A stretch of DNA of 64,000 bases from NCBI GenBank assembly GCA_043814965.1, contig JBDRJN010000015.1, forward strand, positions 1,503 through 65,502, given 5' to 3'. Below, in pieces: positions 37,141-58,151 of the stretch. Each line of letters begins with the position of its first letter. The first letter of the stretch is position 1. The notes beneath the pieces are model-generated. The model was not told the origin of the DNA. It saw nothing but the letters and a program-made list of their open reading frames with translations, and ran no database searches. This DNA is from Candidatus Omnitrophota bacterium. GTDB taxonomy: Bacteria > Omnitrophota > Gorgyraeia > Gorgyraeales > Gorgyraeaceae. The translations under genes and the position numbers were made by a program.

Positions 37141-40100
37141 ATGAGAAACTTTGTAAAGATATCAGGTATTTCAATAATATTTGCTATGGTCATTGCCTTT
37201 GCTATCCCTCAGGTTTTAGGGGAAGGGCCTAGTAAGTGGCCAGTAGAGTTATCCAAAAAGGAGTTCTATAAAGAAGATTATATTACTTTACTCGGCATGT
37301 TTAGTAAGACGATAGAAATAACAAAGACTTATTATGACCCAGGGCCTATCAAGATGGGCGATGTCAGCGGTGATGGTGTAAGTGATATAAGCTTTATAGC
37401 TACTAATAGTACCACTGGATATAACAGTGTATATCTACTCAATAAAGATGGTGTTATTTATGATGGATGGCCTAAAGAACTTGATTGTAATTCTGGAGTT
37501 GCACCAGCGCTTGTAGATCTAGACGAAGATGGTAATATGGAGATTATAGTCAATACAACCTCTGATGGCATAAAGATCTATACGTGGGAATTTGATGGAA
37601 GCCTGGTCAAGAACTTTCCAATAAAAATACCTGGGACTGAAGGTTCTAGCAGTATTGATGAAAAAGGCAGATACTATTTAACCACCACTAGTTATAGTAT
37701 ACCTGCGATAGGAGATGTAGATGGGGATGGCATAGAAGATCTAGTTGTTACAGGGACTACTATAAAGGATTATGGAAATCAGCTAAAAAATGAGACTATA
37801 AATAAGATCTGGGCAGTCAGCCTGGGAAGCGGTCAGATGACATTAAGTGGCTGGCCTGTAACCCTGGAAAAAGGCGAAAACTTACCCTATTGGAATTCTC
37901 CAGCTATAGCTGATATAGATAATGATGGCACAATGGAAGTAATTATAGGTATAAATAGGCCTTGTGGTGATAAGTTAGATAAAGATACATACCGCGTATA
38001 TGTATTTAACTGCGATGGAAAGCCTTTTAATGAGAATTGGCCGAAGGATCTAAAGCTTGATAACATTACTTTAGAAAAGACATTAGGCATTACCTCGGAC
38101 TTTTATAGAAGTAAGGATAGTAAGTTTGGTTTTATGACTTCCCCGGTTGTTGCAGATGTAAACGGGGACAATAAGGAAGAGATAGTTATAGCTGGTTCTT
38201 ATCTAAATTATTTTATAGCGCCTAATGAATTAGGATTGGGCTCAGAATATGACACACCTTTTATAGAAGCTAATTCAATATTGTATGTCATGGACAAAGA
38301 TGCTTTTATACTGGAGGGATGGCCCAGGATAATAGGGACCAGCCTGATACATCAGGCATTCAAATACATTGACCCGTCTATAAGTATAGGTGATGTAGAT
38401 TACGATAGCATTCCTGATATATCTTTACCAGGGTACGATGGCAATATCCATATATTGAATTATATGGCAGATGAGATTCTCAAGATAGAAAGCCTTGATT
38501 TTTATAAAAAATATTTTTATACATTAATAGGCGATATAAATAATGACTTTAAAGTCGATATAGTAGCCCCTGCATTAGAAAATATAATATGCGCTTTTGA
38601 TACAGATGGAAAATACCTTAATGATTTTACGCCTAAAAGGATGGAGGGAGATACTGATTTTGTAAACCCATTGATCGTAGCATGCCCTGCCATAGACAAT
38701 ATAGAGATGAGGGATTATCTCAGTATAATCTCTCCTTCATCTAAAAATAAAAACGTATCTAACTATCCTGCAGGCATAATAAATAAATGGGATGCTGGCG
38801 ATACTGGTTTGATCGGAGATATCAAAGAGACATCTATTATAGATTGGCCCCAGTTTGCATATGACGCCAAGAACACCAACTGGCACTTGTCTAATGAAAA
38901 GACCAACCGCTCCGGGGATGATAAAGATGATAAATTGCAGAAAAAAAATACTATCAGCGGTTATGTGGCGTCTTCTATCCAAGATGACTATGGCAGAAGA
39001 CTGTTTTATTTTGAAGGAGTAAAAGTCCGGGCAATAGTCTGGGATCCTATATTAAAAGTATATGGCCCTATACATTCTGAGGTTTTTACTGGGCCTGATG
39101 GTACATATGAGTTTCCAGAAGAGGACATGGTTCCTGGAACTATTTATTCGATCGTAGCTAATCCTTTGGAAAAGGCGCCTTATCCAAAATTGGAGTATAA
39201 AGAAAAATACGTAGGCGATGTAGTAGAATTTGCGTTTGGCCCGATATATAAACACTCTGATTGTTTTGGCCAGGCCTTTGATAGAGAAACAGGCAAGGCA
39301 CTAGAAGGCGTGACTGTAAAACTAAGGGCAGACTCTGATTTTAAGATCTATTCCGGGGTTTCTAATAATAATGGGTGGTTCTTGATCCAGGGCTTACCTT
39401 ATCTTTCTTTTTATGATGTTTTTGCTTCAAAGAAAGGATATAAAGAAGAACAGAGGGGGCCGATAGATATCAAACAGGATCCTTTTTACAGGATAACAAA
39501 TCCTGACCTTTCTCTTGTCCCTATTCCAAAAGGCAGTATCTCAGGTAAAGTAATGGATGGAGCTATCGGAGTAGAGGGTATGGTTGTTGAAGCTATTGAT
39601 AAAGACGGGGATATATATTCAGATACTACTGATGCATCAGGCGAGTATGAGATAAAAGATCTATTGGAGAATTATAACTATACCGTTACCGTGGGTGAAA
39701 AAGAAGGTTATAAGGGCTCTATCCCTACAAAACATGAAGTAACTGTAGTAGGTAATATCTTAAATATTGATTTTACTCTTCAAAAGACAAGTTATAGCAT
39801 CTCCGGAGTGATATACAATGAAGATGGTTCAAAAAGATTACATCCTAGCACAGTTAAATTAGAAGGTACTTCTGCTAGCGTACTGACCATGGAAGATCCT
39901 GACAAACCAGGAGAGTTTGGATACTATGAAGTCGCAGGCCTGGAAGAAGACGGATATTATATCCTTACTGTTAGTAGTGATGGTTATATACCTGTAAGCC
40001 GAGGCTTTATTGATCTAAGAGAAGATACAAAGTTTGATTTTCATCTTAAAAAGCCCCCTGAAAGATATAATATTACTGTAAATGTGCGGGATGAAAATAA

Positions 40101-40806
40101 TAAACTAGTGCCTCGAGCGCATGTAGGTATAGTGGGGTTTGGTTATGATATAGATGTTGGATATGATGGCATATTGGAGTGGGAAGGATTATTTGGAGGG
40201 GAAAAGACTTTTTGGGCTTCAAAGGATGGGAAATACGGCGAGACCAAGGCTGTGATCGAGGAGAATGGAGTAGTTGTAGATATAGTATTAAAGGAAAATA
40301 GATACTCTCTTTCAGGCATTGTAACTGAAAGAGGCGCTAATATTCCTTTAAAAGATGTAATAATAAAAATAAAACTACCAAATGGCATTGAAAAAGCTGC
40401 AAGGTCAAATTCCAATGGTTATTACCTTATTAAGGACATGCCTAATGGTAAATATATGGCATCGTGTACCAAAGAAAGAGAAGGAGGTATATGGTATCAT
40501 GGGTATAGATTGGAAGTTGTTATTTCAGGGAAGAATAAGACACTGGATCTAACGCTTGCTAAGGGAGAATATCTATATACTGTTACTGGTAGAGTAGTTG
40601 ATGAAGATGGCGACCCTGTAAAAGGCGCTACTGTAAGGCCAGATGGGCTTGGACAGAGGCTTACTACAGATAGATCAGGCGAATATTCATTATTATTGCC
40701 TGCTAAGACATATTTATTTATAGCTGAGCTGAATGGTAAAAGAGGAGAGAGGTCTATCACTGTAAAAGAAGAAAATACCAGAGTGGAAGACATTATTATC
40801 AGATAG
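37141..40806 (+). CDS. Giant surface protein (1221 aa): signal peptide, FG-GAP/VCBS-type beta-propeller repeats, C-terminal carboxypeptidase-regulatory-like (CarboxypepD_reg) repeats
   Basis: N-term MRNFVKISGISIIFAMVIAFAIPQVLG; repeats GDVSGDGVSDISF, VDLDEDGNMEII, GDVDGDGIEDLVV, ADIDNDGTMEVII, ADVNGDNKEEIVIAG; C-term units DGTYEFPE, SGEYEIKDL..YNYTVTV, SGEYSLLLPAKTYLFIA. Confidence 0.7.
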   Translation: MRNFVKISGISIIFAMVIAFAIPQVLGEGPSKWPVELSKKEFYKEDYITLLGMFSKTIEITKTYYDPGPIKMGDVSGDGVSDISFIATNSTTGYNSVYLLNKDGVIYDGWPKELDCNSGVAPALVDLDEDGNMEIIVNTTSDGIKIYTWEFDGSLVKNFPIKIPGTEGSSSIDEKGRYYLTTTSYSIPAIGDVDGDGIEDLVVTGTTIKDYGNQLKNETINKIWAVSLGSGQMTLSGWPVTLEKGENLPYWNSPAIADIDNDGTMEVIIGINRPCGDKLDKDTYRVYVFNCDGKPFNENWPKDLKLDNITLEKTLGITSDFYRSKDSKFGFMTSPVVADVNGDNKEEIVIAGSYLNYFIAPNELGLGSEYDTPFIEANSILYVMDKDAFILEGWPRIIGTSLIHQAFKYIDPSISIGDVDYDSIPDISLPGYDGNIHILNYMADEILKIESLDFYKKYFYTLIGDINNDFKVDIVAPALENIICAFDTDGKYLNDFTPKRMEGDTDFVNPLIVACPAIDNIEMRDYLSIISPSSKNKNVSNYPAGIINKWDAGDTGLIGDIKETSIIDWPQFAYDAKNTNWHLSNEKTNRSGDDKDDKLQKKNTISGYVASSIQDDYGRRLFYFEGVKVRAIVWDPILKVYGPIHSEVFTGPDGTYEFPEEDMVPGTIYSIVANPLEKAPYPKLEYKEKYVGDVVEFAFGPIYKHSDCFGQAFDRETGKALEGVTVKLRADSDFKIYSGVSNNNGWFLIQGLPYLSFYDVFASKKGYKEEQRGPIDIKQDPFYRITNPDLSLVPIPKGSISGKVMDGAIGVEGMVVEAIDKDGDIYSDTTDASGEYEIKDLLENYNYTVTVGEKEGYKGSIPTKHEVTVVGNILNIDFTLQKTSYSISGVIYNEDGSKRLHPSTVKLEGTSASVLTMEDPDKPGEFGYYEVAGLEEDGYYILTVSSDGYIPVSRGFIDLREDTKFDFHLKKPPERYNITVNVRDENNKLVPRAHVGIVGFGYDIDVGYDGILEWEGLFGGEKTFWASKDGKYGETKAVIEENGVVVDIVLKENRYSLSGIVTERGANIPLKDVIIKIKLPNGIEKAARSNSNGYYLIKDMPNGKYMASCTKEREGGIWYHGYRLEVVISGKNKTLDLTLAKGEYLYTVTGRVVDEDGDPVKGATVRPDGLGQRLTTDRSGEYSLLLPAKTYLFIAELNGKRGERSITVKEENTRVEDIIIR

Positions 40807-40830
40807 CACGCTGTGTTATTAAATAACATG

Positions 40831-40870
40831 TAGCCTTGTAGGGGAGCCTTAAGGCTCCCCTACAAGGCTA
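40831..40870. repeat. Extended REP hairpin tagccttGTAGGGGAGCCTTAAGGCTCCCCTACaaggcta (18-bp stem)
   Basis: Perfect inverted repeat seen directly; immediately after giant gene stop. Confidence 0.8.
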
Positions 40871-41076
40871 CACAGGTTCCCCTACATATTTAGGAGATAA
40901 TAATTAGATTATTATAGTATCAACTAGTTGCAGTTATTAGAGTTACAAAAACTATATAAACTATGCAAAAAAAGTATTTTCTATCCTTGAATTTTTAGAA
41001 ATATGTGGCATACTTGAAATAGAGAAATAGGAGGCAGAAACACTGAGACTTTGAAAACTTAATGTTTAACCAGTCA

Positions 41077-41217
41077 AAGGGCAAACCCAGAGTAATCTGG
41101 GGGCGCAAAGCTACGGGTCCTTGGTTATAAGGATGGCCGAGTTACCAAGGATAGCCGAGCTAGTTGATTGATGTGAAGGAGGAAGGATCAAATATCTCGG
41201 CTTTTTTGTTGCTTAAA
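41077..41217 (+). ncRNA. sRNA-like unit 1 (conserved 5' block aagggcaaacccagagtaatctggggGcgcaaagctacgggtcc, ends in intrinsic terminator)
   Basis: Block duplicated at 41337-41379; 3' gccgag...ctcggc + T6. Confidence 0.45.
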
Positions 41218-41336
41218 AAGGAGGCAGCGAAATAATAAGAGGAGGCAGGGTAAGACGCTTTAAGGAGGCACACTTTTTAGTTAATCCTTAAGACAATTGA
41301 ATATTAGGTATTATTTATAATAATACTTTCAGTAAA

Positions 41337-41504
41337 AAGGCAAACCCAGAGTAATCTGGGGACGCAAAGCTACGGGTCCTAAATCAGGAAGTAGCTGACA
41401 CTTAAGTGTCAGCTGCAGTTGATTAGGGCAGCCGGGTCGCCAAGAAAGTTAATTTATTTTTAGGATAGCCGAGCTTACGTTTAATACAAAGCTCGGCTTT
41501 TTTA
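41337..41504 (+). ncRNA. sRNA-like unit 2 (same 5' block, internal perfect hairpin agctgacacTTAAgtgtcagct, ends in terminator agccgagctt...aagctcggct + T6)
   Basis: Tandem paralog of unit 1. Confidence 0.45.
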
Positions 41505-41749
41505 TTTAAGTGAGGACGTAAGCTATGGAACGAAGTGAACATAACTTACTGTCCGAACTTATCCCGAGCCGCCATGGGTAAGTATGATGCGGCGAGGGAG
41601 AAATTAGAGAGAAAGGAAAACGCAATGACTAGAGTAATAGGATCCGAACTCATATATAACCCATATCCGATAATAGATGAGAGGCTTTTTCTCATTTTTA
41701 TAATAGTAGCAGGTTTACTAATAGCAGTATAACCAAAAGGGGGCTCATC

Positions 41750-44700
41750 ATGAAAACGATCATTAAAAACTCAAAAATTTTCACGATCTTTATTGTAACT
41801 GCCATGGCATTTTTGATCATGTCTTCGCATGCTTTTTCGTATGACCCGAATGATCTATTCTGGTATGGGAATGATATGCATCCCCAGCAGAATAAAGACA
41901 ATCTCAATCTCTATCCAGATGATTATACGCCAGAAGGCGAGCCTTGGCGCGAGATTAGTTATGAATACGGCTATTATGACGAAAATCGTGAACGCGACGA
42001 ATATGGTAGGATCGAGGTTGATCAATACGGATTCGGGTATGGCCATGACAATCTACCAGATGATGAACCATGCTATTATCTATGGCCTTTACGAGAAACA
42101 GAAAGACGCGGCCTTAATTGTCCAAAAGCCTGGGACCTTTGGGTCAGAGGCAAAGGTATTGTAACTGCAGTGATTGATTCAGGAGCGTATATAGATCACC
42201 CTGACTTGGTCCAAGCTGATGGGAGATCAGCTATTCTTGAGTACAGGCCAGGTGAGTTTGCAGTAAAGAATTTTATAACCGGCACTACAGATGTAACTGA
42301 CAATCTTGGGCAGGGTACTGCTATAGCAGGGATAATAGCTGCTGGTATGAATAACTGGGGTGCTCAGACTGGTTGTATCGGAGTTGCACCTGAGAGTAAG
42401 CTCATGATATTAAAAGTAATAGATCACCCTACGCTAAACAATGACTTGAATAATACCAAATCACTGGAAGATTTAGTAGAAGAAGCTATTTATTATGCTG
42501 CTGGTAGGAGAGATGATGGATCAGGAGTTCCTCCGGAACATATTGCAGATATTATTAATATCGGAGTCAGAGTTAATCCTACAGTCGGCATTAAAGAGGC
42601 ATTAAAATATGCAAATAGCCTGGGATGTATTATAGTCGCTCCTGCAGGTGGAGATCTAGCAGCTTTAGATGGTGTTATTGGTGTAGGCGCAACCTACCAT
42701 GATGGAACTCATCTTGGAGAGGATAAAAAGACCGGGACCAAAATCCAAGGAGCTAGTGTCTATGCGCCAGGCATAGAAATAGTCTCTTTATGCCCCCCGA
42801 GGGGATCAGGGGAACCAGGAAAACCAACCTTTGATGAACTTGTAAAAGCTTTGCCAAATAGAAGGCAGATCTTTGAATTCCAAAGATATGATTATGGCCA
42901 TTATTTTCACCTTATGCCTTATATTCAAAAAGAAGATGGCCATGCGCTTGCAGCAGCTCACATATCAGGCGTCATAGCGCTAATACAAGAATATAAAGAA
43001 ACGATAGATAAGGGGGATCTATGGGGCGTTGTAAAAAAATACACACCTGAAGAGATAGAGACCCTCTTAAAATTTGCAGCAGTAGAGAAGGGTATCCCTG
43101 ATATTAGAAAGGCTTTAGACCTGGTAGGTTCTAGGGCTGTGATACCGATAGCCAAGATCGTATTGGATAACAAAGGATCGTTTAGAGGGACTATAGATAT
43201 TAAAGGTATATTAAAAGGAAATCCAGGCAGTACTTATGTACTTGAATATGTGAATAATGACCCCTCAAAAGGTGTACAGGGTGTTATAACGGACGGATCC
43301 CTGGCTTCAGAGGAAATAAAGGAGCTTTACCTTGGCAAGCTGGATACTGCAAAATTAGAAGACGGCAGCTATACCTTGAGGTTATATCTACATACAAGTA
43401 TCATGGCCTTAAAAGACGAGGTGGTTATAAATATCAACAATTCTTGTTTGGAAGGTTGGCCTATAGTATTAAAGGGCGCAGAAGGAAATTATATCGGGCT
43501 ATCTGCGCTAGGTTTAGGGTCTCCCACCATAGCTGATCTGAATAATGACAGTAAGAAAGAGGTTATACTAATAGGTAATATAAACGAAAGAGGGATTATT
43601 GATATCAGGGATTATAAAGGCGAGAGGTTTAATTGTATGCCTGAATCAAAGGATGAATACGCATGGAAAGAATACGGGCCCATCACAGCAAGTGACGGAA
43701 GCTCGGATGACAATTTTGGTATATCAGTTTTTATGGATGCTCAATTTGCTGTAGTCGGAGCTCCTAAAGATGGCAGAGGATTGTATTCGGGCTCAGCGTA
43801 TATATTAAGGAATAACTATAGTAGCGGTTGGGCAGAGGAAAAAAAGCTTATTCCAATCGATGGAGCCGGAGGGGACAGGTTTGGCATATCTGTAGCTGGC
43901 GCAAGACTTGTTACAACTGAAAGAGTTATTATAGGAGCCGGTAATTCCGGAGGAAAGGGCGCTGCGTATATATTCAGGAATGATAGTAAAACATGGCCGC
44001 AGGAACGGAAACTTATAGCTCCTAATGGTAGGCCCGGAGACATGTTCGGTAAGTCAGTAGCTATGGACATTACCAATTTTGAATTTAGCATGCTGGGAGA
44101 ACATAATAGATTGAGAGCAGTTGTAGGCGCGCCATGGAGCGAAGGCCGTTCACTGCAAACTGGCTCAGTATATATCTTTGTACGTGATGATTTTATATGG
44201 AACCCTGCACCAGAACAGATATTAACTGCAGAAGATGGAGAGGAGAGGGATGAATTCGGAGAAGCAGTCTCTATGTATGAAGATGTTATCTTGGTAGGCG
44301 CTCCATCTAAGTCAAATGGAAAAGGGGCCGCGTATATATATAGGTATAGTTTAGAGACGCGTAAATGGGAGTATGAACAAAAATTAACAATAACTAATGG
44401 AGAAGACGGAGATAAATTTGGCTGTTCAGTTGCGCTGGAAAAAGATTATGCTGTAATAGGCGCATGGGGCCGTAATAATGATAAGGGAGCTGTATATGTA
44501 TATAAATATGATGCTAATATGAAAACTTGGGGACAGGAACCAGAACAGGTGTTGGAATTAGAAGGCCTTAGTTCCCAGGCTAGATTTGGTAATTCAGTCT
44601 CAATCACTAGAGATCCTAGTGATGAGAATAGAACAAGCGATAGGATAGTGGTAGGGTCTAATTCTATGGAAGGCAAATCTAATTCTGTATATGTTCATAA

Positions 44701-47700
44701 ATATTACGGCAGTAAATGGGAATTAGAAGGAGCTCTTAGGCCAAAGGATAATGAACCTAGTTTTGGTATATATGTTTCGATATATGGCCAGAATATTATT
44801 ACAAGCGCTGTAAATAAAGATGTAAATAAAGGCGCAGCATATATGTTTGGATACTCAAAGAAAGAGCCTGAAGTCAAAGTCTTTGGCTGGCCCAAGATGA
44901 ATCGTTTATTTCATTCCAAAGCATTAGCCTATGATCTGGATAATGACAGTGACCTTGAGATATTGGCAGCGACTGGAGATGAAGCTTATGCATGGAATAT
45001 TGATGGTACAGGAGTGGCTGGGTGGCCTTTTAGGGAAGGAAGGTATCTTTCTCCTATAACTATAAGCGACTTAGATAATGATGAAAGACCTGAGATAATT
45101 ACTGCAGGCGTAGATGAAAATAACATACCTACTATATATGCCTTAAATCCTGATGGTACGCTAAAGGCCAGTATAATGAGAAGAGCTGGTGATACGCTTG
45201 AATTTTATAGTCTAAACACGCCTCCTTCTATAGCTGACTTAGATGGAAAAGGGGCTAAAGAGATAACCACACTTTCTAGCTATAACGGAATTGGTACGCC
45301 GTGTGTACGCGTATTTAGTGAATCAGGTATGTTATGGAAGGATAAGTTTGATATTGCTCCAGCAAACTTTGGGGTAACCGATAATATAGAGGGTGCAGAT
45401 TATATACAGAACTACCTTACGCAATCAATGATAGGCAATGTAGATAATACCAAGGAACTTGAAGTTATAGTAACAGGCTATATTGTTTTTTATAAGACAT
45501 CTTCAAGGTTAGTAGAATATCCTGACCAATACACGGGAGACTTTGTAAGATGCTACAGGCATGATGGCGAGATAAAGTGGACTAGATTCATAGAGAGCGG
45601 TAAAAATAATACAACGCATGATTATAATATCAGTTCTATGGGGGACATTGATGAGGATGGCTGCGCCGATATAGTTTTTATAAGTTCTAACGGAAATATG
45701 TATCTATTAGGAGGAAGCGATGGGAGCGCGATCAAGAAGATCGTACCGAAAAAAGAGACTGACCAATTTCATTCTTCAACAGTTGCGGATTCAAAGATCA
45801 TAGCCGCTACTAAAAATAATGAGATAAAATTATATGATTTCAAGGGGGATCTTATCAAGGTTCTTTCAATGCAACCTGGGACGATAAATGAAGGTATGAT
45901 GCCTTTTAGTTTGAAATCGCCTGCACTTGGAGACCTGGATAATGATAATAAGCTTGATATAGTGGCACCCACTTATAGTCTTGTAGAGGAGTCTTTTGAT
46001 AAGATATATGCCTTTACACTGGAAGAATCAAAATACGACCCTAATACAGTAGAGTGGGGCAGTTACCAGAACGAGGGTAATACTGGGCTCCATAATCAGA
46101 CCAATTATATGGCGCTTAATATTCCTAACAGGACCGTATCCGTAGGGGAAGAGGTAAATATCAATTTCGCGGATCATCTTTCATGTTTTCCAGTTGATAT
46201 GAAGGTCGAGTTTTCAGCAGAGTCGGAGCTTATACCTCCGGGGATTGTCAGCGCGCCAAGCTTTATCTGGACTCCTTTAGAAGAGAATGAGGGTAAGACA
46301 TATCCTGTCATTGCGCGCGCGAAAGAGATCAACGGCAAATTAGGAACAGCCTGTACTTTTAATATAACTGTAAAGACCAATAGGCTTGCTATACATGGAA
46401 TGGTCTATGATGGTTATCTTGTGGGCATAGAAGGAATGGATGTATATTTAAGAGAACTTGACAGTGATGGTAACGTAATAAATTCAAAGAGCACTTATTC
46501 CTGGATAGACGGCAGTTATAAAATGACAAATTTCATAAAACCAGGTAATAAAATACAGGTTAGAGTCCCAGATTTAGTGATAGGAGGAGAGACTATCTAC
46601 ACAGAAGCAACAGTTACTAGAGACATAAATGAGGTTAATTATGTACATAGCATAGATGTATATCTTAAACGCGCAAAAGATGACAAAGGGTATGATATCC
46701 TGTATTCAAACTTGCTTGGGACTGTGGTGGATGAAAGTGGCAAAACTATAGGAGGGGCGACCTGTACTATAAAGCTAGGCAGCAATACAATAACTATATG
46801 TTCTACTAAGAACTCTACATCAAATGTTATGTATTACTGGCGTGACTCTTCAAATAATGTACAGCGTAAGACTGTACCTCAGAATTTCTACATAAGGGGT
46901 CTTAAGCTTGAAACTATGTATAATATCTCGTTCGAAAAAGAAGGATACGAGACAGTTGAGCTTAGCCGCGCCTCAGGCAGGGAAGAATACCAGATGCTTC
47001 TTGCGCCTATAGTAATGAAGCTTGTTTCGGGTAATGATGAAAAAGGCGAGACAACGCAGAGCGAGAAGACACAGCGCATAACAGGTGATATTAAGGGATA
47101 TGCAAAATCTTTTATTCAGGCACAAGAGTTTACGCCATCATTTTTCCCTATATCAGGGATCAAGATGCGAGCAGTTAAATGCCGCTATAATAAGGAAGTA
47201 AAAGAAGAAGATGCATATAGCGAAATAACCACAACGGATGAGAAGGGTTTTTATAAATTTGAAGGCTTGGTTTGGGATCAAGTATTAAATAACGACGAGA
47301 CAGTAAACAAAGGGAAAAGCGATTGGTACCTTATTACAGCTAATTATGACAGAGATAACAAGGTTTATCCAGAATATAATTCTGTTACATTAGATGCGTC
47401 CGGAGGAGTTCAGTTAGGCAGTAAGATAACAGAACCATTGCTACCAAATGAAACACAAGATTTTTCATTTAAGCCAATAGACGATGGTAATAATCAATAT
47501 TTTGTTTGTTTTGGCAGAGTTTTAGATTCTACAACAGGAGCTGACGGCCTGGGTTTAGCTAATATAACATTTAAGGTTAATGGATTGCAGGGTGCCACGA
47601 GTTATTCTGCGACGACATTTACATATACTAAAGAATCAGACTATAGAAACCAGTACAAAATACAAGGATGGTTTTTTATACCAGCAGTACCTGTTGTTAA

Positions 47701-49144
47701 AGGATTAGACCAATATACTGTTGAGATATCAAAAGATGGATATAAGACTAAAGAAGGTAATAAGAGTTATAAAGATGACGATATGATTGTAGACCCAAAA
47801 CATGCTAAAGCAGACGGATTTAAAATATCAGGCCCTGATAAAGGCAATGTAACTCTTTATCCAGCTCCAAAATATACCATTTCCGGAACAGTAACAGATG
47901 ATAAAGAGGATGCTCTTGAAGAAGTTACAGTTATTGCAAAAGATAAAAACAATGAAACTTACTCAGATACTACTGGAAGTGACGGTACCTATACTATAGG
48001 GGACCTATCAGAGGGAGACTACACTGTTACTGCTGGTACATCGGAAGGCTACAAAAGTCCTGAATCAAAATCTGTTACGCTTGATGGAGATAAGGATAAT
48101 ATAAATTTCACATTTATTAAACTATCAACAATCAGCGGTAAAGTATTGGATACGTATGATAAAAAATCTATTTCTAATGCAATATTGGAGCTAAAGAGTA
48201 AAGATGCAGACTGGACCACAGGCACTACTTCAGGCAGTGATGGGTCATACGAACTTAGCAATGTTCCAAAAGGCGCGTATACCCTTACTGCCTCAAAGCC
48301 GAATTCGCCTTACTCCAAGGAAGACGTATCCATTGACCTCAATATAGAAGGCAATGTTACTCAGGATGTGCTACTTAAGGCCTTCATTGATTTTGATATC
48401 ATGATAACTGATAAAGAAACAGGTACTGCTATAATGGGGGCTAATGTTACAGTGGATGGTAAGCCTGTAGGTACTACTGATTCATTGGGCTTATGTAGAG
48501 CTAATGCAGAAAAAGGCGAGCACGAGCTGAGTGCTTCAAAAGATAACTATATATCTAATAGTATGTCTATAAAGATAATAGAGCCTGTTACTATAACAGC
48601 GCTTAAGCTTTTATCTAATGCTCCGCGTATATTCGGGAAGGTCCTGGATCCTGATGGAAATCCGATCGGAGGAGTTATGATTACTATCCGTACTCCTGAC
48701 AGGAAAGTGATACGTTGCGGCACTAATAGTAGTGGGCTTTATGACTCTGGTACCATGACTTTAAAAGGAAAATATCAGGTGATATTTACGCCGCTACAGA
48801 AATATTACAATAGAACATCAAAGGTATTAGAGATCAATGAACGCACGGAATTGAATGTTGATATCCCATGGAAAGAAACAAAAATGAGAATTGTAATACA
48901 AGATGAAGATGGAAAAAGGATTAGGCAAGATTTTACCCTTGAAGCAAACAGCAAAGAAGGATGGAAACTTAATGCTAATGGGAAAAGAGGTAATTATTTA
49001 GCTATAGTAAGATATGCAAAAGATGAAGATACTTTGTATACATTTAATGTAAAGGGTGTTGATGGGTATCAAGATGGAAAAAATACTTTATTAGGAAAAG
49101 ACATAAGGTTCTTTAGAACGCTTTACATAACTTTAGAGAAATAG
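41750..49144 (+). CDS. Giant surface protein (2464 aa): signal peptide, N-terminal subtilisin-like (S8) domain with apparent catalytic-triad substitutions, 7 FG-GAP repeats (integrin-alpha-like propeller), second VCBS-type propeller, many CarboxypepD_reg-like repeats
   Basis: S8-like motifs VIDSGAYIDHPDL (Asp), NLGQGTAIAGIIAAG (HGT->QGT), GHALAAAHISG (GTSMAAP->GHALAAA); FG-GAP units FGISV..VGAP..GSAYIL, FGISVAGA..GAAYIF, FGKSVAM..GSVYIF, FGEAVSM..VGAP..GAAYIY, FGCSVAL..GAVYVY, FGNSVSI..SVYVH, FGIYVSI..GAAYMF. Confidence 0.7.
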   Translation: MKTIIKNSKIFTIFIVTAMAFLIMSSHAFSYDPNDLFWYGNDMHPQQNKDNLNLYPDDYTPEGEPWREISYEYGYYDENRERDEYGRIEVDQYGFGYGHDNLPDDEPCYYLWPLRETERRGLNCPKAWDLWVRGKGIVTAVIDSGAYIDHPDLVQADGRSAILEYRPGEFAVKNFITGTTDVTDNLGQGTAIAGIIAAGMNNWGAQTGCIGVAPESKLMILKVIDHPTLNNDLNNTKSLEDLVEEAIYYAAGRRDDGSGVPPEHIADIINIGVRVNPTVGIKEALKYANSLGCIIVAPAGGDLAALDGVIGVGATYHDGTHLGEDKKTGTKIQGASVYAPGIEIVSLCPPRGSGEPGKPTFDELVKALPNRRQIFEFQRYDYGHYFHLMPYIQKEDGHALAAAHISGVIALIQEYKETIDKGDLWGVVKKYTPEEIETLLKFAAVEKGIPDIRKALDLVGSRAVIPIAKIVLDNKGSFRGTIDIKGILKGNPGSTYVLEYVNNDPSKGVQGVITDGSLASEEIKELYLGKLDTAKLEDGSYTLRLYLHTSIMALKDEVVININNSCLEGWPIVLKGAEGNYIGLSALGLGSPTIADLNNDSKKEVILIGNINERGIIDIRDYKGERFNCMPESKDEYAWKEYGPITASDGSSDDNFGISVFMDAQFAVVGAPKDGRGLYSGSAYILRNNYSSGWAEEKKLIPIDGAGGDRFGISVAGARLVTTERVIIGAGNSGGKGAAYIFRNDSKTWPQERKLIAPNGRPGDMFGKSVAMDITNFEFSMLGEHNRLRAVVGAPWSEGRSLQTGSVYIFVRDDFIWNPAPEQILTAEDGEERDEFGEAVSMYEDVILVGAPSKSNGKGAAYIYRYSLETRKWEYEQKLTITNGEDGDKFGCSVALEKDYAVIGAWGRNNDKGAVYVYKYDANMKTWGQEPEQVLELEGLSSQARFGNSVSITRDPSDENRTSDRIVVGSNSMEGKSNSVYVHKYYGSKWELEGALRPKDNEPSFGIYVSIYGQNIITSAVNKDVNKGAAYMFGYSKKEPEVKVFGWPKMNRLFHSKALAYDLDNDSDLEILAATGDEAYAWNIDGTGVAGWPFREGRYLSPITISDLDNDERPEIITAGVDENNIPTIYALNPDGTLKASIMRRAGDTLEFYSLNTPPSIADLDGKGAKEITTLSSYNGIGTPCVRVFSESGMLWKDKFDIAPANFGVTDNIEGADYIQNYLTQSMIGNVDNTKELEVIVTGYIVFYKTSSRLVEYPDQYTGDFVRCYRHDGEIKWTRFIESGKNNTTHDYNISSMGDIDEDGCADIVFISSNGNMYLLGGSDGSAIKKIVPKKETDQFHSSTVADSKIIAATKNNEIKLYDFKGDLIKVLSMQPGTINEGMMPFSLKSPALGDLDNDNKLDIVAPTYSLVEESFDKIYAFTLEESKYDPNTVEWGSYQNEGNTGLHNQTNYMALNIPNRTVSVGEEVNINFADHLSCFPVDMKVEFSAESELIPPGIVSAPSFIWTPLEENEGKTYPVIARAKEINGKLGTACTFNITVKTNRLAIHGMVYDGYLVGIEGMDVYLRELDSDGNVINSKSTYSWIDGSYKMTNFIKPGNKIQVRVPDLVIGGETIYTEATVTRDINEVNYVHSIDVYLKRAKDDKGYDILYSNLLGTVVDESGKTIGGATCTIKLGSNTITICSTKNSTSNVMYYWRDSSNNVQRKTVPQNFYIRGLKLETMYNISFEKEGYETVELSRASGREEYQMLLAPIVMKLVSGNDEKGETTQSEKTQRITGDIKGYAKSFIQAQEFTPSFFPISGIKMRAVKCRYNKEVKEEDAYSEITTTDEKGFYKFEGLVWDQVLNNDETVNKGKSDWYLITANYDRDNKVYPEYNSVTLDASGGVQLGSKITEPLLPNETQDFSFKPIDDGNNQYFVCFGRVLDSTTGADGLGLANITFKVNGLQGATSYSATTFTYTKESDYRNQYKIQGWFFIPAVPVVKGLDQYTVEISKDGYKTKEGNKSYKDDDMIVDPKHAKADGFKISGPDKGNVTLYPAPKYTISGTVTDDKEDALEEVTVIAKDKNNETYSDTTGSDGTYTIGDLSEGDYTVTAGTSEGYKSPESKSVTLDGDKDNINFTFIKLSTISGKVLDTYDKKSISNAILELKSKDADWTTGTTSGSDGSYELSNVPKGAYTLTASKPNSPYSKEDVSIDLNIEGNVTQDVLLKAFIDFDIMITDKETGTAIMGANVTVDGKPVGTTDSLGLCRANAEKGEHELSASKDNYISNSMSIKIIEPVTITALKLLSNAPRIFGKVLDPDGNPIGGVMITIRTPDRKVIRCGTNSSGLYDSGTMTLKGKYQVIFTPLQKYYNRTSKVLEINERTELNVDIPWKETKMRIVIQDEDGKRIRQDFTLEANSKEGWKLNANGKRGNYLAIVRYAKDEDTLYTFNVKGVDGYQDGKNTLLGKDIRFFRTLYITLEK

Positions 49145-49301: not shown

Positions 49302-49369
49302 ATATCAATATTATATCGTTCAAAAATAGAGTAATATTAAACATGGTTTTTAACAAAAAGGAGGGTAAT

Positions 49370-52300
49370 ATGTATACTCTAACTAGGAATAAAAGGATGA
49401 TTTTAGGGGCAGGGGTTTTCCTGTTGCTTTTATCCGCTGTGCCAGCTATGGCAGTAGAAGGCGAATGGGAGAGAAAGCTTGAAGAGACACAGGTTATAGA
49501 TGGCGGCGGAGGCGGTTTTATTGGTTTAGGCCGCGGCATACCTCAGACAATCATCACTAGCACTATAGACATAAATCCTATTATAGTAAAAGATGTTGAC
49601 CTGGATGGTAGGGAGGAGATAGCTTTTACAGGCACACCTAGCAATAGCGGCCTGGGAAATAACCCTTCAGTTAACCTTTATTTACTAGATTCTAATGGAG
49701 ATAATTATATCCCGCCTGATGCGCCTTATGGTACAGTTAGCAAATGGCCTATAGAAAAAAAGGGAGGGGGGATAGTACCAGCGCTACACGATATCAATAA
49801 TGACAATATATCAGAAGTCATTGTTACAGGCGTAGATAATCAAGGCATCAGGATCTATGCTTACACCCCTGAAGGGAATATCTTATCAAAATATCCTAAA
49901 TTAATACCAGGGACAGCTTATTGTACAACTTATGGGACTTCTGTAGTGGCAGATATTGACCTTGATGAAAGGCCTGATCTGGTTATTACAGGAAGCTCAG
50001 CAAGGGGAGGTAATAAAGTCTATGCAGTTAATTTCGAAACAGGTAACTCTCTAGAAGGCTGGGAAGGCGGAAGGCCTTTACCTATAGGAGAAGAACTTGC
50101 ATCAAATATCTCCCCAGTCATAGCTGATATGGATGGAGATAAATACCCTGAGATAATTATAGGTACTTTTACGCATGGAGGAAAGGGGACTAACACTCCA
50201 AAGCTGCATATCTTAAGTCATGATGGAAAACTCACCACTATAACTGAGGGCCTTGAGTTATCCAAAAAATTGAAAACAGATCTAAACATTAAAGATGGGG
50301 ATAGGTTTTTTGAAAAATCAGCCAATAGTTTTGGTTTTATGACCTCTCCTGCAGTAATGGATGTAAATGGTAAAAAGTTTATAGCAGCGGTTGCTACTTA
50401 CATAAAGCCTATTGATAAAAATGAAAGAGAGATAGGTTCGATACTATATATCCTGGATGAAAAAGGATATTGCTATCCTGGAGAGTTGGTGAATTTTGAT
50501 ACATATTTTTATCCAACGCCTTATGCGTATCCAAGCGTTACTATAGGTGAAGTGACAAAGGAGAAGAGACCTTATATAGTCATTACTTGTAATGGCAAGA
50601 TATCCATGTTTTATGATTTTGGCGGAAAGATCGGCGATGATATACCAGCCCATCCTATTGGTGGCGGGCACTTTGCTGCAGTACTGGGAAGCGATAATAA
50701 GATAGCTACATTGACTTTTAATGGCTATGTAGCTTGCTATGACGCTGTAACAGGGCTTATGGAAAATAATTTTCCTAAGAAAATGGCAGTAGATACTCCT
50801 CGTTCTAACGGCCTGCCATATCTAGCATTATTAAGGAATATGGATAGCCGCAGCGATGTCATAATAGCTCCTTCATATGGCAATAGCTCTACGCCTAGTG
50901 GAGTTGTATATGCATTTAAGACTAGTGCCAGTGGAGGCTTATTAGGATTTGGCTCGGGCATGAAAGAGGATAATAGGCAATGGCCTATGATAAATCTGAA
51001 CCCAGTAAATACAAGATATGAATCAGCAGGTAGTAGCGGCATGGACATTATGCTTACGCCGCCTCCTCCTGTAAAGGAGCCGATAGATATCAGCGGTAAA
51101 GTAAAGGCAAACACACCTTATTATAAGGGGCATGAGTTTCATTTAGAAGGGATAATAGTTCGCGCGGCTGGTTACTATGATGACAGTATAAAACATGAAA
51201 CTACAACTGCTGCTGACGGGTCTTATAAATTTGAGGGCTTAGAAACTACAGATTATACTGTTGTTGCTAATCCTGAGGGAAAATATGGCTATAAAAGTGA
51301 ATCAAGAGCCCCGGTAGGAAATGATAACAATGTGAACTTCTCACTTTCTCCAAAAGAAGGCTTTTTTGTCCTTTATGGCCAAGTCGTAGATGCAAAATCC
51401 AGAGAAGGTATCGATGGCGTAACAGTGGATACGACCGTTAAAGGTGGGTCTTATTCTGCAGTTACAGCTGATGAAGGGTATTATTTAATATCAGAGATAC
51501 CTCGCGGAGAAGATACATATGCAGTCAACGCCTCAAAGGATGGCTATGTAGGCAAGACACAAAGTATGCCAGGTCAGATCATGCAAGATTTTAATAGCAT
51601 GGAATTCAAGATATTAGAGGACAAGACCTATACTTATACTATTACTGGGATAACATATGATTCCAATAATAACACATTAAGCGGGGTAACTATTGGATTA
51701 GAGGGGAAAAGTGTAACTGCGACAACTCAAACAGATGGTAGTTATAGCCTTAGCGTGGAACTTGCAAACGGAGACTATTATATTACTGCTAAGAAAAATT
51801 ACTATGTTAATACTACCGGGAAGCAGCATATAGTGATAGCTGATGATAGTTATACTACTATTACAGCGGTTAATTTCAATTTTGCTTCAGAGACAGTCAA
51901 GGTATCGGGATACGTCAAGGAAAAAGATAGTAATACACCTTTAAAGAATGCTCTTATAACAGCTACTATCACTTTAAATGGCAGGACCGATACAAAGCAG
52001 ACTTATTCTAGTTTTCAAGCAAAGACACTCGGGTATTATGAATTTTCAAGCATTCCAAAAGGAGCTAATATCAGAGTTGTTGCTGGGCTGGATGGATATA
52101 ATGCCAGCGATCCTTTAAATGTAGGTGTAGTGGAGAATAAAAAACTACAGGATATCTTTCTTGAAAAGGGCAAGTATATTGTTAGCGGAAAGGTATGCAA
52201 AGAAGAAAACAATGAAGGCATCGCCAGCGCGGCCATTACTATTTATGTAGTCAAAGACAATAAGCGCAGTAAGTTTGATAGCTTGCGTTCTGGAAGCGGC

Positions 52301-52789
52301 GGGGCCTATTCAGTGAAACTGCCAGCAGGTGATTATATATTCAATGTCTCAGCTCCTAAGAATCTTAAACCTGAGCGCGCGCCTATAGAAAAGACAGTAA
52401 CCTCACCCGGCAATGGTAGTCTTACGCTGGATCTAAAGCTTAAAGAAGTTGAACCTGAAGTGCTCTATGATTCTCAAGGTAGAAGGTTATATACTACCAA
52501 TGGCGATGTTTATTATTACTACTATGACAGTAAAGGAAGAAAAATTCGTAAAAAGCATAGTTACTTTACTGTTAAATTCATAAACCAAACTACAAAAGAA
52601 GTATATAAAGCGGATATTAAAAGCAGTAATTACTATTCTATATTAGCACCAGAAGGCAAATATGATATAAAAATAAACGATCATTGGCAACGAAGTAAAG
52701 ATAAAAAAGCATGGCCATCTGTAATAACCGTAAACAAGGATAGAAAAGGTAGGATGGACTGGTATCTAGAGGTGCCGAAAACAGAATAA
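49370..52789 (+). CDS. Giant surface protein (1139 aa from ATG after AGGAGGG SD): signal peptide, VCBS/FG-GAP-type propeller, CarboxypepD_reg-like repeats
   Basis: MYTLTRNKRMILGAGVFLLLLSAVPAMA; KDVDLDGREEIAFTG, HDINNDNISEVIVTG, ADIDLDERPDLVITG, ADMDGDKYPEIIIG; C-term DGSYKFEGLETTDYTVVA, DGSYSLSVELANGDYYITA etc. Confidence 0.7.
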   Translation: MYTLTRNKRMILGAGVFLLLLSAVPAMAVEGEWERKLEETQVIDGGGGGFIGLGRGIPQTIITSTIDINPIIVKDVDLDGREEIAFTGTPSNSGLGNNPSVNLYLLDSNGDNYIPPDAPYGTVSKWPIEKKGGGIVPALHDINNDNISEVIVTGVDNQGIRIYAYTPEGNILSKYPKLIPGTAYCTTYGTSVVADIDLDERPDLVITGSSARGGNKVYAVNFETGNSLEGWEGGRPLPIGEELASNISPVIADMDGDKYPEIIIGTFTHGGKGTNTPKLHILSHDGKLTTITEGLELSKKLKTDLNIKDGDRFFEKSANSFGFMTSPAVMDVNGKKFIAAVATYIKPIDKNEREIGSILYILDEKGYCYPGELVNFDTYFYPTPYAYPSVTIGEVTKEKRPYIVITCNGKISMFYDFGGKIGDDIPAHPIGGGHFAAVLGSDNKIATLTFNGYVACYDAVTGLMENNFPKKMAVDTPRSNGLPYLALLRNMDSRSDVIIAPSYGNSSTPSGVVYAFKTSASGGLLGFGSGMKEDNRQWPMINLNPVNTRYESAGSSGMDIMLTPPPPVKEPIDISGKVKANTPYYKGHEFHLEGIIVRAAGYYDDSIKHETTTAADGSYKFEGLETTDYTVVANPEGKYGYKSESRAPVGNDNNVNFSLSPKEGFFVLYGQVVDAKSREGIDGVTVDTTVKGGSYSAVTADEGYYLISEIPRGEDTYAVNASKDGYVGKTQSMPGQIMQDFNSMEFKILEDKTYTYTITGITYDSNNNTLSGVTIGLEGKSVTATTQTDGSYSLSVELANGDYYITAKKNYYVNTTGKQHIVIADDSYTTITAVNFNFASETVKVSGYVKEKDSNTPLKNALITATITLNGRTDTKQTYSSFQAKTLGYYEFSSIPKGANIRVVAGLDGYNASDPLNVGVVENKKLQDIFLEKGKYIVSGKVCKEENNEGIASAAITIYVVKDNKRSKFDSLRSGSGGAYSVKLPAGDYIFNVSAPKNLKPERAPIEKTVTSPGNGSLTLDLKLKEVEPEVLYDSQGRRLYTTNGDVYYYYYDSKGRKIRKKHSYFTVKFINQTTKEVYKADIKSSNYYSILAPEGKYDIKINDHWQRSKDKKAWPSVITVNKDRKGRMDWYLEVPKTE

Positions 52790-52983: not shown

Positions 52984-53009
52984 TTTTAAAAATAAGGTAG
53001 GTATTGTAT

Positions 53010-54722
53010 ATGGCTGATAAAGTCAACAAGAAGATATCGCGTCTAGGTGATAAATTAGTAGAAAAAGGCCTTATCACAGATGACCAGCTAAAGCTAGCAC
53101 TTACTGAACAGAAAAAGACAGGGGATTTTCTGGGAAGCATATTGGTCGGCCTGGGGACTATCAGGGAAGAGGACCTCTATCTATCGCTCTCAGAGCAGTT
53201 AGATATCCCGTATATAAAGATAAAAGAATCCCGCATAGCAACTGACGCCCTAAGCAAGGTCTCTGCGAAGCTAGCATCCCAATATAAGATAATGCCAATA
53301 AAATTTGAGAAAAATGTCCTTACAGTAGCTGTCAGGGACCCTCTCAATATAAAGATGCTGGATGACCTGAAACTTATTTTAGGGTGTAATATTACTGCGG
53401 TCCTGGCATGCGAGACTGATATCCTCGAGGCTATCAAACGATACTACGGGATAGGAGCTGATACTATACAGGAGATGATGGATACTAAGCCAGCTGCTGA
53501 AGAGCCCGAGATAGTCATAGGAAAGACCGAGGATATACAAGATGTCTCAGGAGACGCATCTATAATAAGATTTGTAAATCAGATACTGATGCAGGCTATA
53601 AAAGACAAGGCCACTGATATACATATAGAACCCTATGAAAATGAGCTAAAGGTAAGATATAGGGTCGATGGCGTGTTATATGATATACCTATACCGCAGG
53701 ATATAAAGTATTTTGCTTCAAGTATCGCTTCCAGGATAAAAGTAATGTCAAACCTGGACATATCTGAAAAAAGGCTTCCTCAAGACGGCAGGGTAAAGAT
53801 AAAGATGGGAAGAGATGAGATGGACTTGAGGATCTCGACTTTACCAACACAATTTGGAGAGAGTGTCAATATAAGGCTGCTTACAGGGACGCAGTTTTAT
53901 AGCCTGGAAAAATTGGGCCTTTTTCCGGATGATATGAAGATAATAGAGCGGCTTATAAAGAAGCCTCACGGCATTATATTTACCACAGGGCCTACTGGAA
54001 GCGGCAAGACCACGACATTGTACTCGTGTATATCCAAGATAAATACAAATGACAAAAAGATCATAACCATAGAAGATCCTATAGAATACCAGCTTAAAGG
54101 AGTGACCCAGATACAGGTCAATCCAAAGACAGGCCTTACATTTGCCCAAGGCCTCAGGTCAATGCTGAGGCATGACCCTGATATTATGATGGTAGGTGAA
54201 GTAAGAGACTATGAGACAGCAGAGATCACTATAAGGGCAGCTTTGACAGGGCATCTTGTGTTCTCAACTATTCATACCAATGATGCGGCGGGAGGAGTGG
54301 CAAGGCTTCTCGATATAGGAGTGGAGCCGTATCTTGTCGCTAGTTCCGTAGATTGTTTTCTGGCGCAGCGCCTTGTAAGGGTGATATGCTCAAAATGTAA
54401 GACCAAGGTAAAGATAGATGAGTCTATTTTAAGGGATTTTGGAGCGGAGGAAAAAATAGATATGGTAGATGGTTTTATATATGAAGGAAAAGGCTGTGAA
54501 GAATGCAAGTTCAGCGGATATAAAGGAAGGACTGGCATATATGAGTTTTTAGCTATGGGCGAGGATATACGCAGCCTGGTCATTAAAAGAGCCCCTGCAA
54601 GCCAGATCAAGCAAAAAGCGCTGGAGCTCGGCATGCACACCCTTCGCATGGACGGATGGGAAAAAATAAAAAAAGGCATTACAACTATAAATGAAGTAAT
54701 AAGGGTTACAGGTCAGGATTAA
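53010..54722 (+). CDS. gspE: Type II secretion / type IV pilus assembly ATPase (GspE/PilB family) with N-terminal T2SSE_N domain
   Basis: Walker A GPTGSGKTTTLY, Asp/His boxes, tetracysteine CSKC...CEEC; N-domain LGDKLVEKGLITDDQL. Confidence 0.88.
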   Translation: MADKVNKKISRLGDKLVEKGLITDDQLKLALTEQKKTGDFLGSILVGLGTIREEDLYLSLSEQLDIPYIKIKESRIATDALSKVSAKLASQYKIMPIKFEKNVLTVAVRDPLNIKMLDDLKLILGCNITAVLACETDILEAIKRYYGIGADTIQEMMDTKPAAEEPEIVIGKTEDIQDVSGDASIIRFVNQILMQAIKDKATDIHIEPYENELKVRYRVDGVLYDIPIPQDIKYFASSIASRIKVMSNLDISEKRLPQDGRVKIKMGRDEMDLRISTLPTQFGESVNIRLLTGTQFYSLEKLGLFPDDMKIIERLIKKPHGIIFTTGPTGSGKTTTLYSCISKINTNDKKIITIEDPIEYQLKGVTQIQVNPKTGLTFAQGLRSMLRHDPDIMMVGEVRDYETAEITIRAALTGHLVFSTIHTNDAAGGVARLLDIGVEPYLVASSVDCFLAQRLVRVICSKCKTKVKIDESILRDFGAEEKIDMVDGFIYEGKGCEECKFSGYKGRTGIYEFLAMGEDIRSLVIKRAPASQIKQKALELGMHTLRMDGWEKIKKGITTINEVIRVTGQD

Positions 54723-54723
54723 T

Positions 54724-56435: not shown

Positions 56436-56557
56436 GCCCAAGTTTTTATTACCCATTATACGGCAAAAGTTAAGAAAAAAATCCAACCTGCCTTGACATA
56501 GGCTTTTTAGTAGAGTATACTTACTCTCTGAGTAGAGAGTAAGCTATTACTATCTAT

Positions 56558-57637: not shown

Positions 57638-57638
57638 T

Positions 57639-58136: not shown

Positions 58137-58151
58137 ATAAAGGATATTTAT

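Follow-up and report, generated by a model that had tools for sequence, protein, structure and literature searches.

A subtilase homologue without an intact catalytic triad heads a large, predicted exported protein of an Omnitrophota bacterium

A 2464-residue protein with a subtilase-like head

We describe a single gene on the + strand of a 64-kb window from a metagenome-assembled genome (MAG) of a Candidatus Omnitrophota bacterium. The gene encodes a protein of 2464 amino acids (aa), hereafter the giant protein, whose N-terminal part is a subtilase (Peptidase_S8, or S8) domain that has lost most of its catalytic residues. The window is the whole stretch of 64,000 nucleotides analyzed here, and all positions refer to it. 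A first-pass annotation of the gene, made from the sequence by itself, had proposed that the triad of this domain was dead and that the protein binds or scaffolds rather than cleaves. The gene is one open reading frame (ORF) of 2464 codons, with an ATG start and zero internal stops. Its database counterpart sits on a 122,557-bp contig and carries as its sole annotation "carboxypeptidase regulatory-like domain-containing protein." In Pfam, the protein matches Peptidase_S8, FG-GAP_2 (227 bits), FG-GAP_3, and CarboxypepD_reg. The features that bear most directly on its N-terminal domain are the following.

41750..49144, + strand: complete coding sequence of the 2464-aa protein, identical to NCBI MFH1479025.1 (Candidatus Omnitrophota MAG)
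41737..41743, + strand: Shine-Dalgarno-like AAGGGGG, 6 nt 5' of the ATG (direct sequence reading)
41750..41839, + strand: Sec-type signal peptide, aa 1-30, A-F-S before Y31 (cleavage site by eye)
42113..43129, + strand: pseudo-subtilase (Peptidase_S8 fold) domain, aa 122-460 (Pfam, alignments, predicted fold)
42176..42178, + strand: D143, codon GAT, catalytic Asp kept (MAFFT, codon reading)
42311..42313, + strand: Q188, codon CAG, catalytic His replaced (phmmer, MAFFT, profile)
42650..42652, + strand: G301, codon GGA, oxyanion-hole Asn replaced (MAFFT, profile)
42944..42946, + strand: A399, codon GCG, nucleophilic Ser replaced (phmmer, MAFFT, profile)

The signal-peptide-like stretch at aa 4-30 is the sole hydrophobic segment of the protein. 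No SecA-like domain was matched by Pfam anywhere along its length, and no RTX or type I secretion signal, cell-wall anchor, or beta-subunit partner was recognized for it. Database searches found little that resembles the protein as a whole: a full-length search returned the protein itself and FG-GAP matches of at most 109 bits, with nothing else, and the best matches in a word-based search with the N-terminus reached only ~30% identity; an exact look-up of the protein led to no recorded contig.

Three of four catalytic residues are replaced

Pfam assigns aa 134-444 to PF00082 Peptidase_S8 (E = 6.5e-17, 62.2 bits, cutoff 21.8). A profile of 51 homologues, from which the query was excluded, takes in aa 102-476 as one domain (187 bits, E = 3e-59), and its posterior probability is maximal over all three catalytic motifs. 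When compared with solved subtilases by phmmer, the query pairs VIDSG with VIDTG, GQGTAIAG with GHGTHVAG, and GHALAAAH with GTSMAAPH. In a MAFFT alignment of the S8 domain, which comprised the query and its 51 best database homologues, D143 stands opposite Asp, Q188 opposite His, G301 opposite Asn, and A399 opposite Ser in 51/51 cases each; next to these positions, H398 is opposite Thr in 49/51 and A403 opposite Pro in 44/51. Pairwise HMMER alignments with ~200 homologues likewise show Asp (201/201), His (197/200), and Ser (90/90) at the catalytic positions.

The proposal that the VIDSG motif is intact and that the catalytic His and Ser have become Gln and Ala is thus borne out by four independent alignments. 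None of them puts a His or Ser from elsewhere in the domain at the triad, and because all four agree, a register that would restore both residues was rejected. The losses extend beyond this pair: the oxyanion-hole Asn is also gone, the AAGN of homologues reading PAGG in the query. Three of the four catalytic residues (His, Asn, and Ser) are lost, and Asp alone is retained. The domain is therefore a subtilase homologue that is unable to use the Asp-His-Ser mechanism, and the non-proteolytic role suggested in the first-pass annotation is well supported. A further conserved motif, NMSLG, corresponds to NIGVR in the query, at a position that we take to be the S125-L126-G127 substrate-binding strand in subtilisin BPN' numbering.

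Could the domain still be an enzyme, through non-canonical catalysis by H398 or a nearby Cys or Ser, or through a different reaction? D143 is kept, H398 (codon CAT) adjoins the former nucleophile position, and the S8 region contains cysteines at 209, 293, and 348. However, the nucleophile position at the helix N-terminus is occupied by Ala, and both the general base and the oxyanion Asn are gone. An alternative arrangement was seen in 0 of the ~200 homologues, and we know of no such non-canonical mechanism in the S8 family. We consider continued catalysis very improbable.

Less probable still, in our judgment, is that the substitutions reflect a sequencing or assembly error in the MAG, or a pseudogene. 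The sequence does come from a single metagenome-assembled contig, and a second copy is in no database. Yet the codons CAG, GGA, GCG, and CAT require at least five independent nucleotide changes, so a single sequencing error is not credible, and they are accompanied by many coherent further differences, including loss of the prodomain and two insertions. The uninterrupted 2464-codon frame, the good ribosome-binding site, and the signal peptide also argue against an artifact; because the reading frame is intact, a frameshifted or pseudogenized gene was rejected.

The subtilisin fold is predicted to persist

An AlphaFold model of aa 91-477 has a mean predicted local distance difference test (pLDDT) score of 79.4 and a predicted template modeling (pTM) score of 0.83, and the blocks around D143, Q188, and G301 score 92-93. 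The parts modeled with low confidence are only the N-terminal linker, with aa 91-110 below a pLDDT of 50, and a query-specific insertion at aa ~350-392. A Foldseek search of the PDB with this model returned subtilases only, including BprV and savinase, at E values down to 7e-19 and target-normalized template modeling (TM) scores of 0.79-0.81. As modeled, the dead domain retains the subtilisin alpha/beta fold.

Sequence conservation gives a similar picture. The query retains 41 of the 54 columns whose conservation among homologues is 80% or more. Among the 13 lost columns are the catalytic His, Asn, and Ser, two further residues of the Ser motif (Thr and Pro), and the Ser of NMSLG; three of the others are V/I/T exchanges. 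The losses thus take in the catalytic machinery, while most other conserved positions stay.

Descent from active Omnitrophota peptidases

For the N-terminal 565 residues, two S8 peptidases from Omnitrophota MAGs (MBI4436660.1 and MBZ0167326.1) are among the nearest relatives. These two, together with the database proteins P0060, P0068, P0135, and P0198, are Omnitrophota peptidases in which S8 is followed by a beta-sandwich and an FG-GAP_3/VCBS propeller, and they are the known proteins closest to the pseudo-subtilase. They differ from the giant protein in lacking its FG-GAP_2 insertion and its long CarboxypepD_reg array, and their gene neighborhoods are unrelated; the contigs of P0068 and P0198 show unrelated neighbors and no secretion cluster. 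Relatives keep Asp, His, Asn, and Ser at the catalytic positions. The eight nearest that we scanned reach Pfam S8 scores of 196-220 bits, versus 62 for the query, and six of the eight carry a Fervidolysin_NPro-like prodomain. After S8, most relatives share the beta-sandwich found in the query, and several then continue into a GWP motif and FG-GAP_3/VCBS blades. At the place of the prodomain, the giant protein has a different segment.

41840..42112, + strand: acidic and aromatic low-complexity linker, aa 31-121, at the place of the relatives' prodomain (Pfam, alignment, model)

No Inhibitor_I9 or Fervidolysin_NPro-like match was obtained for the query at E <= 0.01, and aa 31-121 could not be aligned to the prodomains of the relatives. 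The dead S8 domain descends from an Omnitrophota family of surface proteases built of prodomain, S8, beta-sandwich, and VCBS propeller.

The domain has also diverged in an uneven manner. Its S8 identity to nine relatives is 31.7%, compared with 49.6% among those relatives, whereas for the beta-sandwich the corresponding values are 26.7% and 27.1%. Divergence was therefore sped up in the S8 domain alone. This is as expected once catalysis no longer constrains a domain.

The same pattern underlies the main rival to our own interpretation, namely, that the inactive S8 domain is an evolutionary relic, a tolerated and still folding spacer that decays neutrally while function resides in the propellers and stalk. 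That the divergence is disproportionate in S8 alone fits such decay, as do the low Pfam score relative to active relatives, the altered motifs that align with substrate-binding segments, the poorly modeled 40-residue insertion, and the singleton status of a protein without conserved orthologues. Several observations speak for constraint instead. The 7.4-kb ORF is intact, the 41 family-conserved positions that remain are mainly structural, and the core and former active-site elements are confidently predicted. Moreover, the S8 identity to relatives is about that of the adjoining, presumably functional beta-sandwich, which suggests structural constraint. Both the accelerated divergence and the altered motifs fit a relic as well as the binding or structural head that we favor below. 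We regard a relic as possible but doubtful.

Substituted S8 domains were also encountered elsewhere among the homologues. P0112 (468 aa) reads D-R-D-S, with GRGTHVAG and APAGDD motifs, and P0071 (240 aa) is a fragment that contains an internal duplication and reads GQGTHVAG. Such dead or atypical domains do recur among the relatives, if sporadically, with the general base substituted in these two. Another candidate, P0036, proved to be a misalignment, its actual motif being HGTH.

Two propellers and a long beta-sandwich array

Downstream of the S8 domain, the giant protein consists of beta-rich modules in the following order.

43142..43444, + strand: post-S8 beta-sandwich, aa 465-565, common with active Omnitrophota relatives (alignments)
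43445..43669, + strand: first VCBS/FG-GAP_3-type blade (GWP ... DLNNDSKKE), aa 566-640 (motif, BLAST)
43670..44866, + strand: seven-bladed FG-GAP_2, integrin-alpha-like beta-propeller, aa 641-1039, an insertion relative to relatives (Pfam, motifs, model, structural matches)
44867..46069, + strand: remaining VCBS/FG-GAP_3-type blades, ~six, aa 1040-1440 (Pfam, motifs, BLAST; model not confident)
46070..49141, + strand: C-terminal array of beta-sandwich modules (Pfam, alignments, repeat HMM)

The FG-GAP_2 region has seven motifs, of which six were found by pattern search and the seventh (EPSFGIYV, aa ~1003) by eye. Its model, at pLDDT 75-95, contains 28 beta-strands, which make seven blades of four, and its top structural matches are integrin alpha-subunit headpieces (E ~3e-12). 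The seven-bladed FG-GAP propeller of the first-pass annotation is thus confirmed, and the second, VCBS/FG-GAP_3-type propeller that it listed is present as well by Pfam and by motifs. VCBS-type DxDxDG-like motifs lie at aa 596, 1062, 1107, 1163, 1299, and 1395, with a seventh at ~1231 recognized by eye, and one of them precedes the FG-GAP_2 propeller. BLAST against the relative P0135 pairs query residues 463-609 with 514-656 and query residues 1062-1422 with 643-985. In this register, the FG-GAP_2 propeller behaves as an insertion of ~450 residues in the contiguous VCBS propeller of the family, which suggests that one propeller is nested in another. The structure model gave no confirmation of this nested arrangement, its VCBS part falling below a pLDDT of 50.

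The C-terminal array is of the CarboxypepD_reg or prealbumin-like kind, and the "many" CarboxypepD_reg repeats of the first-pass annotation reduce to three that are canonical by Pfam (aa 2044-2121, 2128-2204, and 2294-2371). The other beta-sandwich modules are divergent; by eye, we count ~9-10 modules in all. A self-built repeat hidden Markov model (HMM) returned three clean CarboxypepD_reg repeats and otherwise fragments only. The C-terminal ~1000 residues align with the C-terminal arrays of both flanking proteins at 23-29% identity.

Tandem riboswitches in the leader

A 944-bp gap 5' of the giant gene holds two matches to the clan of class I cyclic di-GMP (c-di-GMP-I) riboswitches (CL00126), both on the same strand, together with hairpins that may serve as their expression platforms.

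41071..41150, + strand: c-di-GMP-I-clan aptamer 1 (RF03167, 63.2 bits, gathering score 59)
41153..41207, + strand: intrinsic-terminator-like hairpin (AGCCGAG...CUCGGCU + U6), putative expression platform of riboswitch 1 (sequence, pairing)
41330..41445, + strand: c-di-GMP-I-clan aptamer 2, with an extra ~36 nt hairpin in the P2 loop (RF03167, 59.4 bits)
41467..41503, + strand: intrinsic-terminator-like hairpin (AGCCGAGCUU...AAGCUCGGCU + U6), putative expression platform of riboswitch 2 (sequence, pairing)
40828..40873, no strand assigned: perfect 23-bp inverted repeat GTGTAGCCTTGTAGGGGAGCCTT/AAGGCTCCCCTACAAGGCTACAT, 22 nt past the stop codon of the 1221-aa gene upstream (sequence)

The two terminator-like hairpins were omitted by a terminator pattern scan because their loops are longer than the 3-8 bases that it allowed. 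We read the leader as two complete c-di-GMP-I-type riboswitches in series, each apparently with its own terminator. Both aptamers have A at model position 37, where the consensus of RF03167, the GGC variant, is G. We take this A to be the intercalating A47 that canonical c-di-GMP-I aptamers show in the Vc2 structure. On that equation, c-di-GMP is the likely ligand of both aptamers. The aptamers do not overlap the terminators. An alternative pairing is possible between the 5' strand of P2 and the first half of each terminator (-10.8 and -14.6 kcal/mol). Such an arrangement is usual for OFF switches, and we propose with low confidence that both riboswitches work in that direction.

The 23-bp palindromic hairpin would probably act as a terminator that separates the giant-gene unit from the upstream gene. 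It also gave a weak match to a microRNA model, which is spurious.

Tandem riboswitches of this class have precedents. Doublets are common in the c-di-GMP-I class, with 347 known, and are thought to sharpen the response and make it more digital (Sherlock et al. 2022, PMC9481103). As with the tandem c-di-GMP-I riboswitches upstream of surface-protein genes described there, a class-I-type doublet here precedes a large surface-type gene. The present case differs in its host phylum, Omnitrophota, and in its best model being the GGC variant RF03167 with A at position 37. We found no paper on c-di-GMP-I riboswitches in Omnitrophota.

Flanking paralogues and a partial secretion- or pilus-like cluster

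The giant gene lies between two paralogues and upstream of a partial type II secretion or type IV pilus-like cluster that starts 3.9 kb downstream of it.

37141..40806, + strand: upstream paralogue, 1221 aa, with signal peptide, VCBS propeller, and CarboxypepD_reg array, without S8
49343..52789, + strand: downstream paralogue, 1148 aa, with signal peptide, VCBS propeller, and CarboxypepD_reg array, without S8
53004..60218, + strand: partial type II secretion / type IV pilus-like cluster (Pfam, family scans)
53004-54722, + strand: PilB/GspE-type ATPase with MshE-type c-di-GMP-binding N-domain
54724-55926, + strand: PilM-PilN fusion
55923-56435, + strand: PilO
56810-57637, + strand: ExeA/MshM-like AAA protein
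57639-58136, + strand: GspC-like protein
58152-60218, + strand: secretin

The N-terminus of the ATPase matches MshEN and carries an MshE-type c-di-GMP-binding motif (63.5 bits, cutoff 38). By these motifs and the leader aptamers, the giant gene and the neighboring secretion machine may both be c-di-GMP-responsive. Scans for terminators and promoters in the gaps beside the paralogues yielded no decisive sign of how the operons are arranged. At 50 and 33 bits (cutoff 600), the propellers of the flanking paralogues weakly match NCBIfam NF052323, "T9SS-dependent M6-like inactivated metalloprotease," a similarity that probably reflects the shared propeller only.

All credible genes, that is, every ORF with a family match, are on the + strand across the 64 kb, and GC skew is positive in 32/32 2-kb windows (0.07-0.25). 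The whole stretch appears co-oriented, probably with replication. The genes upstream of the locus serve housekeeping and fatty-acid synthesis. The product of a gene at 18250-23220 has 1656 aa and matches only domains I and II of phosphoglucomutase/phosphomannomutase, at aa 291-593, its other ~1300 residues being unannotated; such domains are listed with the modules that recur in very long proteins of Omnitrophota (bioRxiv 10.64898/2026.06.07.730766). Between this gene and recG, at 23415-23903, is an ORF for an IS200-like Y1 transposase (162 aa, GTG start).

Discussion

The S8 domain is a real pseudoprotease, and we think it fairly probable that it forms the binding or structural head of an exported, non-catalytic, adhesin-like protein of Omnitrophota, the expression of which is riboswitch-gated. 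An ancestral active S8 domain has lost its His (now Q188), its Asn (G301), its Ser (A399), the Thr and Pro close to that Ser, and its prodomain. Given the loss of catalytic residues, it can neither hydrolyze peptides as a serine protease nor process itself or the rest of the protein. It keeps its fold and evolves like a structural module, and it would act as a head at one end of a multidomain protein exported through Sec. The remaining body comprises the beta-sandwich, an integrin-like FG-GAP propeller apparently set within the VCBS propeller, and about ten beta-sandwich modules as a stalk. The two serial c-di-GMP-I-type riboswitches would gate transcription into the giant gene and give a sharp response to the second messenger. 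The adjacent secretin/ATPase cluster would probably be involved in export or display, its ATPase also being of the c-di-GMP-binding type. Compared with the first-pass annotation, this account adds the lost oxyanion Asn, the lost prodomain, the descent from an active family, the apparent FG-GAP insertion, and the tandem riboswitches.

A number of points weigh against this reading. First, the protein stands by itself. A pattern scan and tblastn over 185,579 species genomes found no orthologue, and in an exhaustive phmmer search of 1.84 billion representative proteins its sole hit below E 1e-30 was to itself, the runner-up scoring 70 bits. Because the protein is without an orthologue, conservation or selection of the substitutions is not demonstrable; it is known from a single MAG. 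Second, the faster divergence of S8 fits neutral decay as well as a new function. The 40-residue insertion at aa ~350-392 is found in the query only and is modeled with low confidence, and the query has an 8-residue insertion at the GSGS of the relatives. If the segments aligned with NMSLG and GSGS are the canonical pair of substrate-binding strands, as we take them to be, nothing speaks specifically for peptide binding in the old cleft. Finally, no C-terminal cell-surface anchor or sorting motif was recognized in the protein. Pfam scans of the large ORFs in the window found no GspF/PilC platform protein, and a search of its ORFs in all frames for a prepilin (GFTLIE-type) motif found none. The missing GspF and pilin genes may lie beyond the window, in the rest of the 122-kb contig or of the genome. 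What ties the giant gene to the secretion cluster is adjacency.

A more specific version of our reading would make the dead subtilase a non-cleaving receptor that grips an envelope protein or peptide of a host or prey cell, at the tip of an integrin-like adhesin that would be switched sharply by c-di-GMP, through the tandem riboswitches of the gene and the MshE-type ATPase of the export machine. We consider this version rather unlikely as it stands. The body of the protein resembles bacterial FG-GAP/VCBS adhesins and the heads of integrin alpha subunits in having a seven-bladed FG-GAP propeller and an Ig- or prealbumin-like stalk. It differs from integrin-like adhesins in that its propeller is seemingly inserted in a second, VCBS-type propeller.

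It is useful to compare the domain with CspA and CspC of Clostridioides difficile, subtilisin-like pseudoproteases of spore germination. In these, too, catalytic residues of an S8 fold are substituted, and a non-proteolytic mode of action is known or proposed. CspA has Q757 in place of His and A1064 in place of Ser, and CspC and CspA act in germinant sensing (PMC7200643). CspA thus shares with Q188 and A399 the exact pair of Gln for His and Ala for Ser, apparently by a convergent route of inactivation. In other respects the systems differ. The Csp proteins occur in spores, measure ~55-60 kDa, retain their prodomain uncleaved, and work with an active partner, CspB, whereas the query has no prodomain, has lost the oxyanion Asn, belongs to another phylum, and heads a 2464-aa exported protein of propellers and beta-sandwiches. 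The phmmer match to CspC (6mw4), at E 5e-4, is weaker than those to many ordinary subtilisins. By its missing prodomain, its generic similarity, and the lack of a partner protease in the 64-kb window, the query domain falls outside the Csp family.

These sensors nonetheless raise the idea of a regulatory pseudoprotease, which would control an active subtilase encoded elsewhere, sense a small molecule, or serve as a decoy for protease inhibitors. S8 pseudoproteases that act as sensors or regulators are known, CspA with the same His-to-Gln and Ser-to-Ala pair among them (PMC7200643), and active S8-propeller relatives occur in other Omnitrophota. But the window contains no second S8 gene, the domain is fused to an extracellular-type body of 2000 residues rather than free-standing, the prodomain kept by the Csp pseudoproteases is absent, and the similarity to CspC is of the S8-generic kind just described. 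We hold a regulatory role to be improbable, and return to a binding or structural head as the reading to be set against what is known of Omnitrophota.

Giant Omnitrophota proteins of the Archaeovorin and Dockerin types often begin with an N-terminal S8 domain, for which autocatalytic cleavage has been proposed; they reach 39,678 aa in Velamenicoccus archaeovorus and >85,000 aa in others, and they combine numerous transmembrane segments with SecA-like domains (West-Roberts et al. 2023, bioRxiv 10.1101/2023.11.21.568195). They adjoin type II secretion-like loci and have PilZ/GGDEF links to c-di-GMP, and a role in prey attachment has been proposed (bioRxiv 10.1101/2023.11.21.568195). The protein described here comes from the same phylum, carries its S8 domain N-terminally (aa 122-460), and has a type II secretion-like locus as its neighbor. 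It differs from these giants in its length of 2464 aa, in having a signal peptide only and no SecA-like domain, and in an S8 domain that cannot be autocatalytic. In a term search of that study and of a second one (bioRxiv 10.64898/2026.06.07.730766), neither riboswitches nor inactive or pseudo-enzyme domains turned up.

The significance of a singleton from one MAG is limited, and S8 pseudoproteases are already a known category. What is new here is an S8 pseudoprotease in an unusual architecture and phylum, with added regulatory context. The case is a clean natural example of the passage from protease to pseudoenzyme, in that active ancestors are identifiable, the prodomain has been lost, and the catalytic domain alone has accelerated. 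An S8 head that is unable to cut also warns against equating a "Peptidase_S8" annotation with activity.

For the biology of Omnitrophota, the finding may matter in several ways. Attachment to, and predation on, other microbes is presumed for these uncultured, very small bacteria, and the leading candidates for this interaction are their large secreted proteins. If the receptor reading were true, it would define an adhesin head derived from a protease, and it would mean that the S8 domains of large Omnitrophota proteins are not always there for self-processing. Finally, the tandem riboswitches and the c-di-GMP-binding-type ATPase would make the regulation of attachment open to testing in a phylum where genetics is almost absent.

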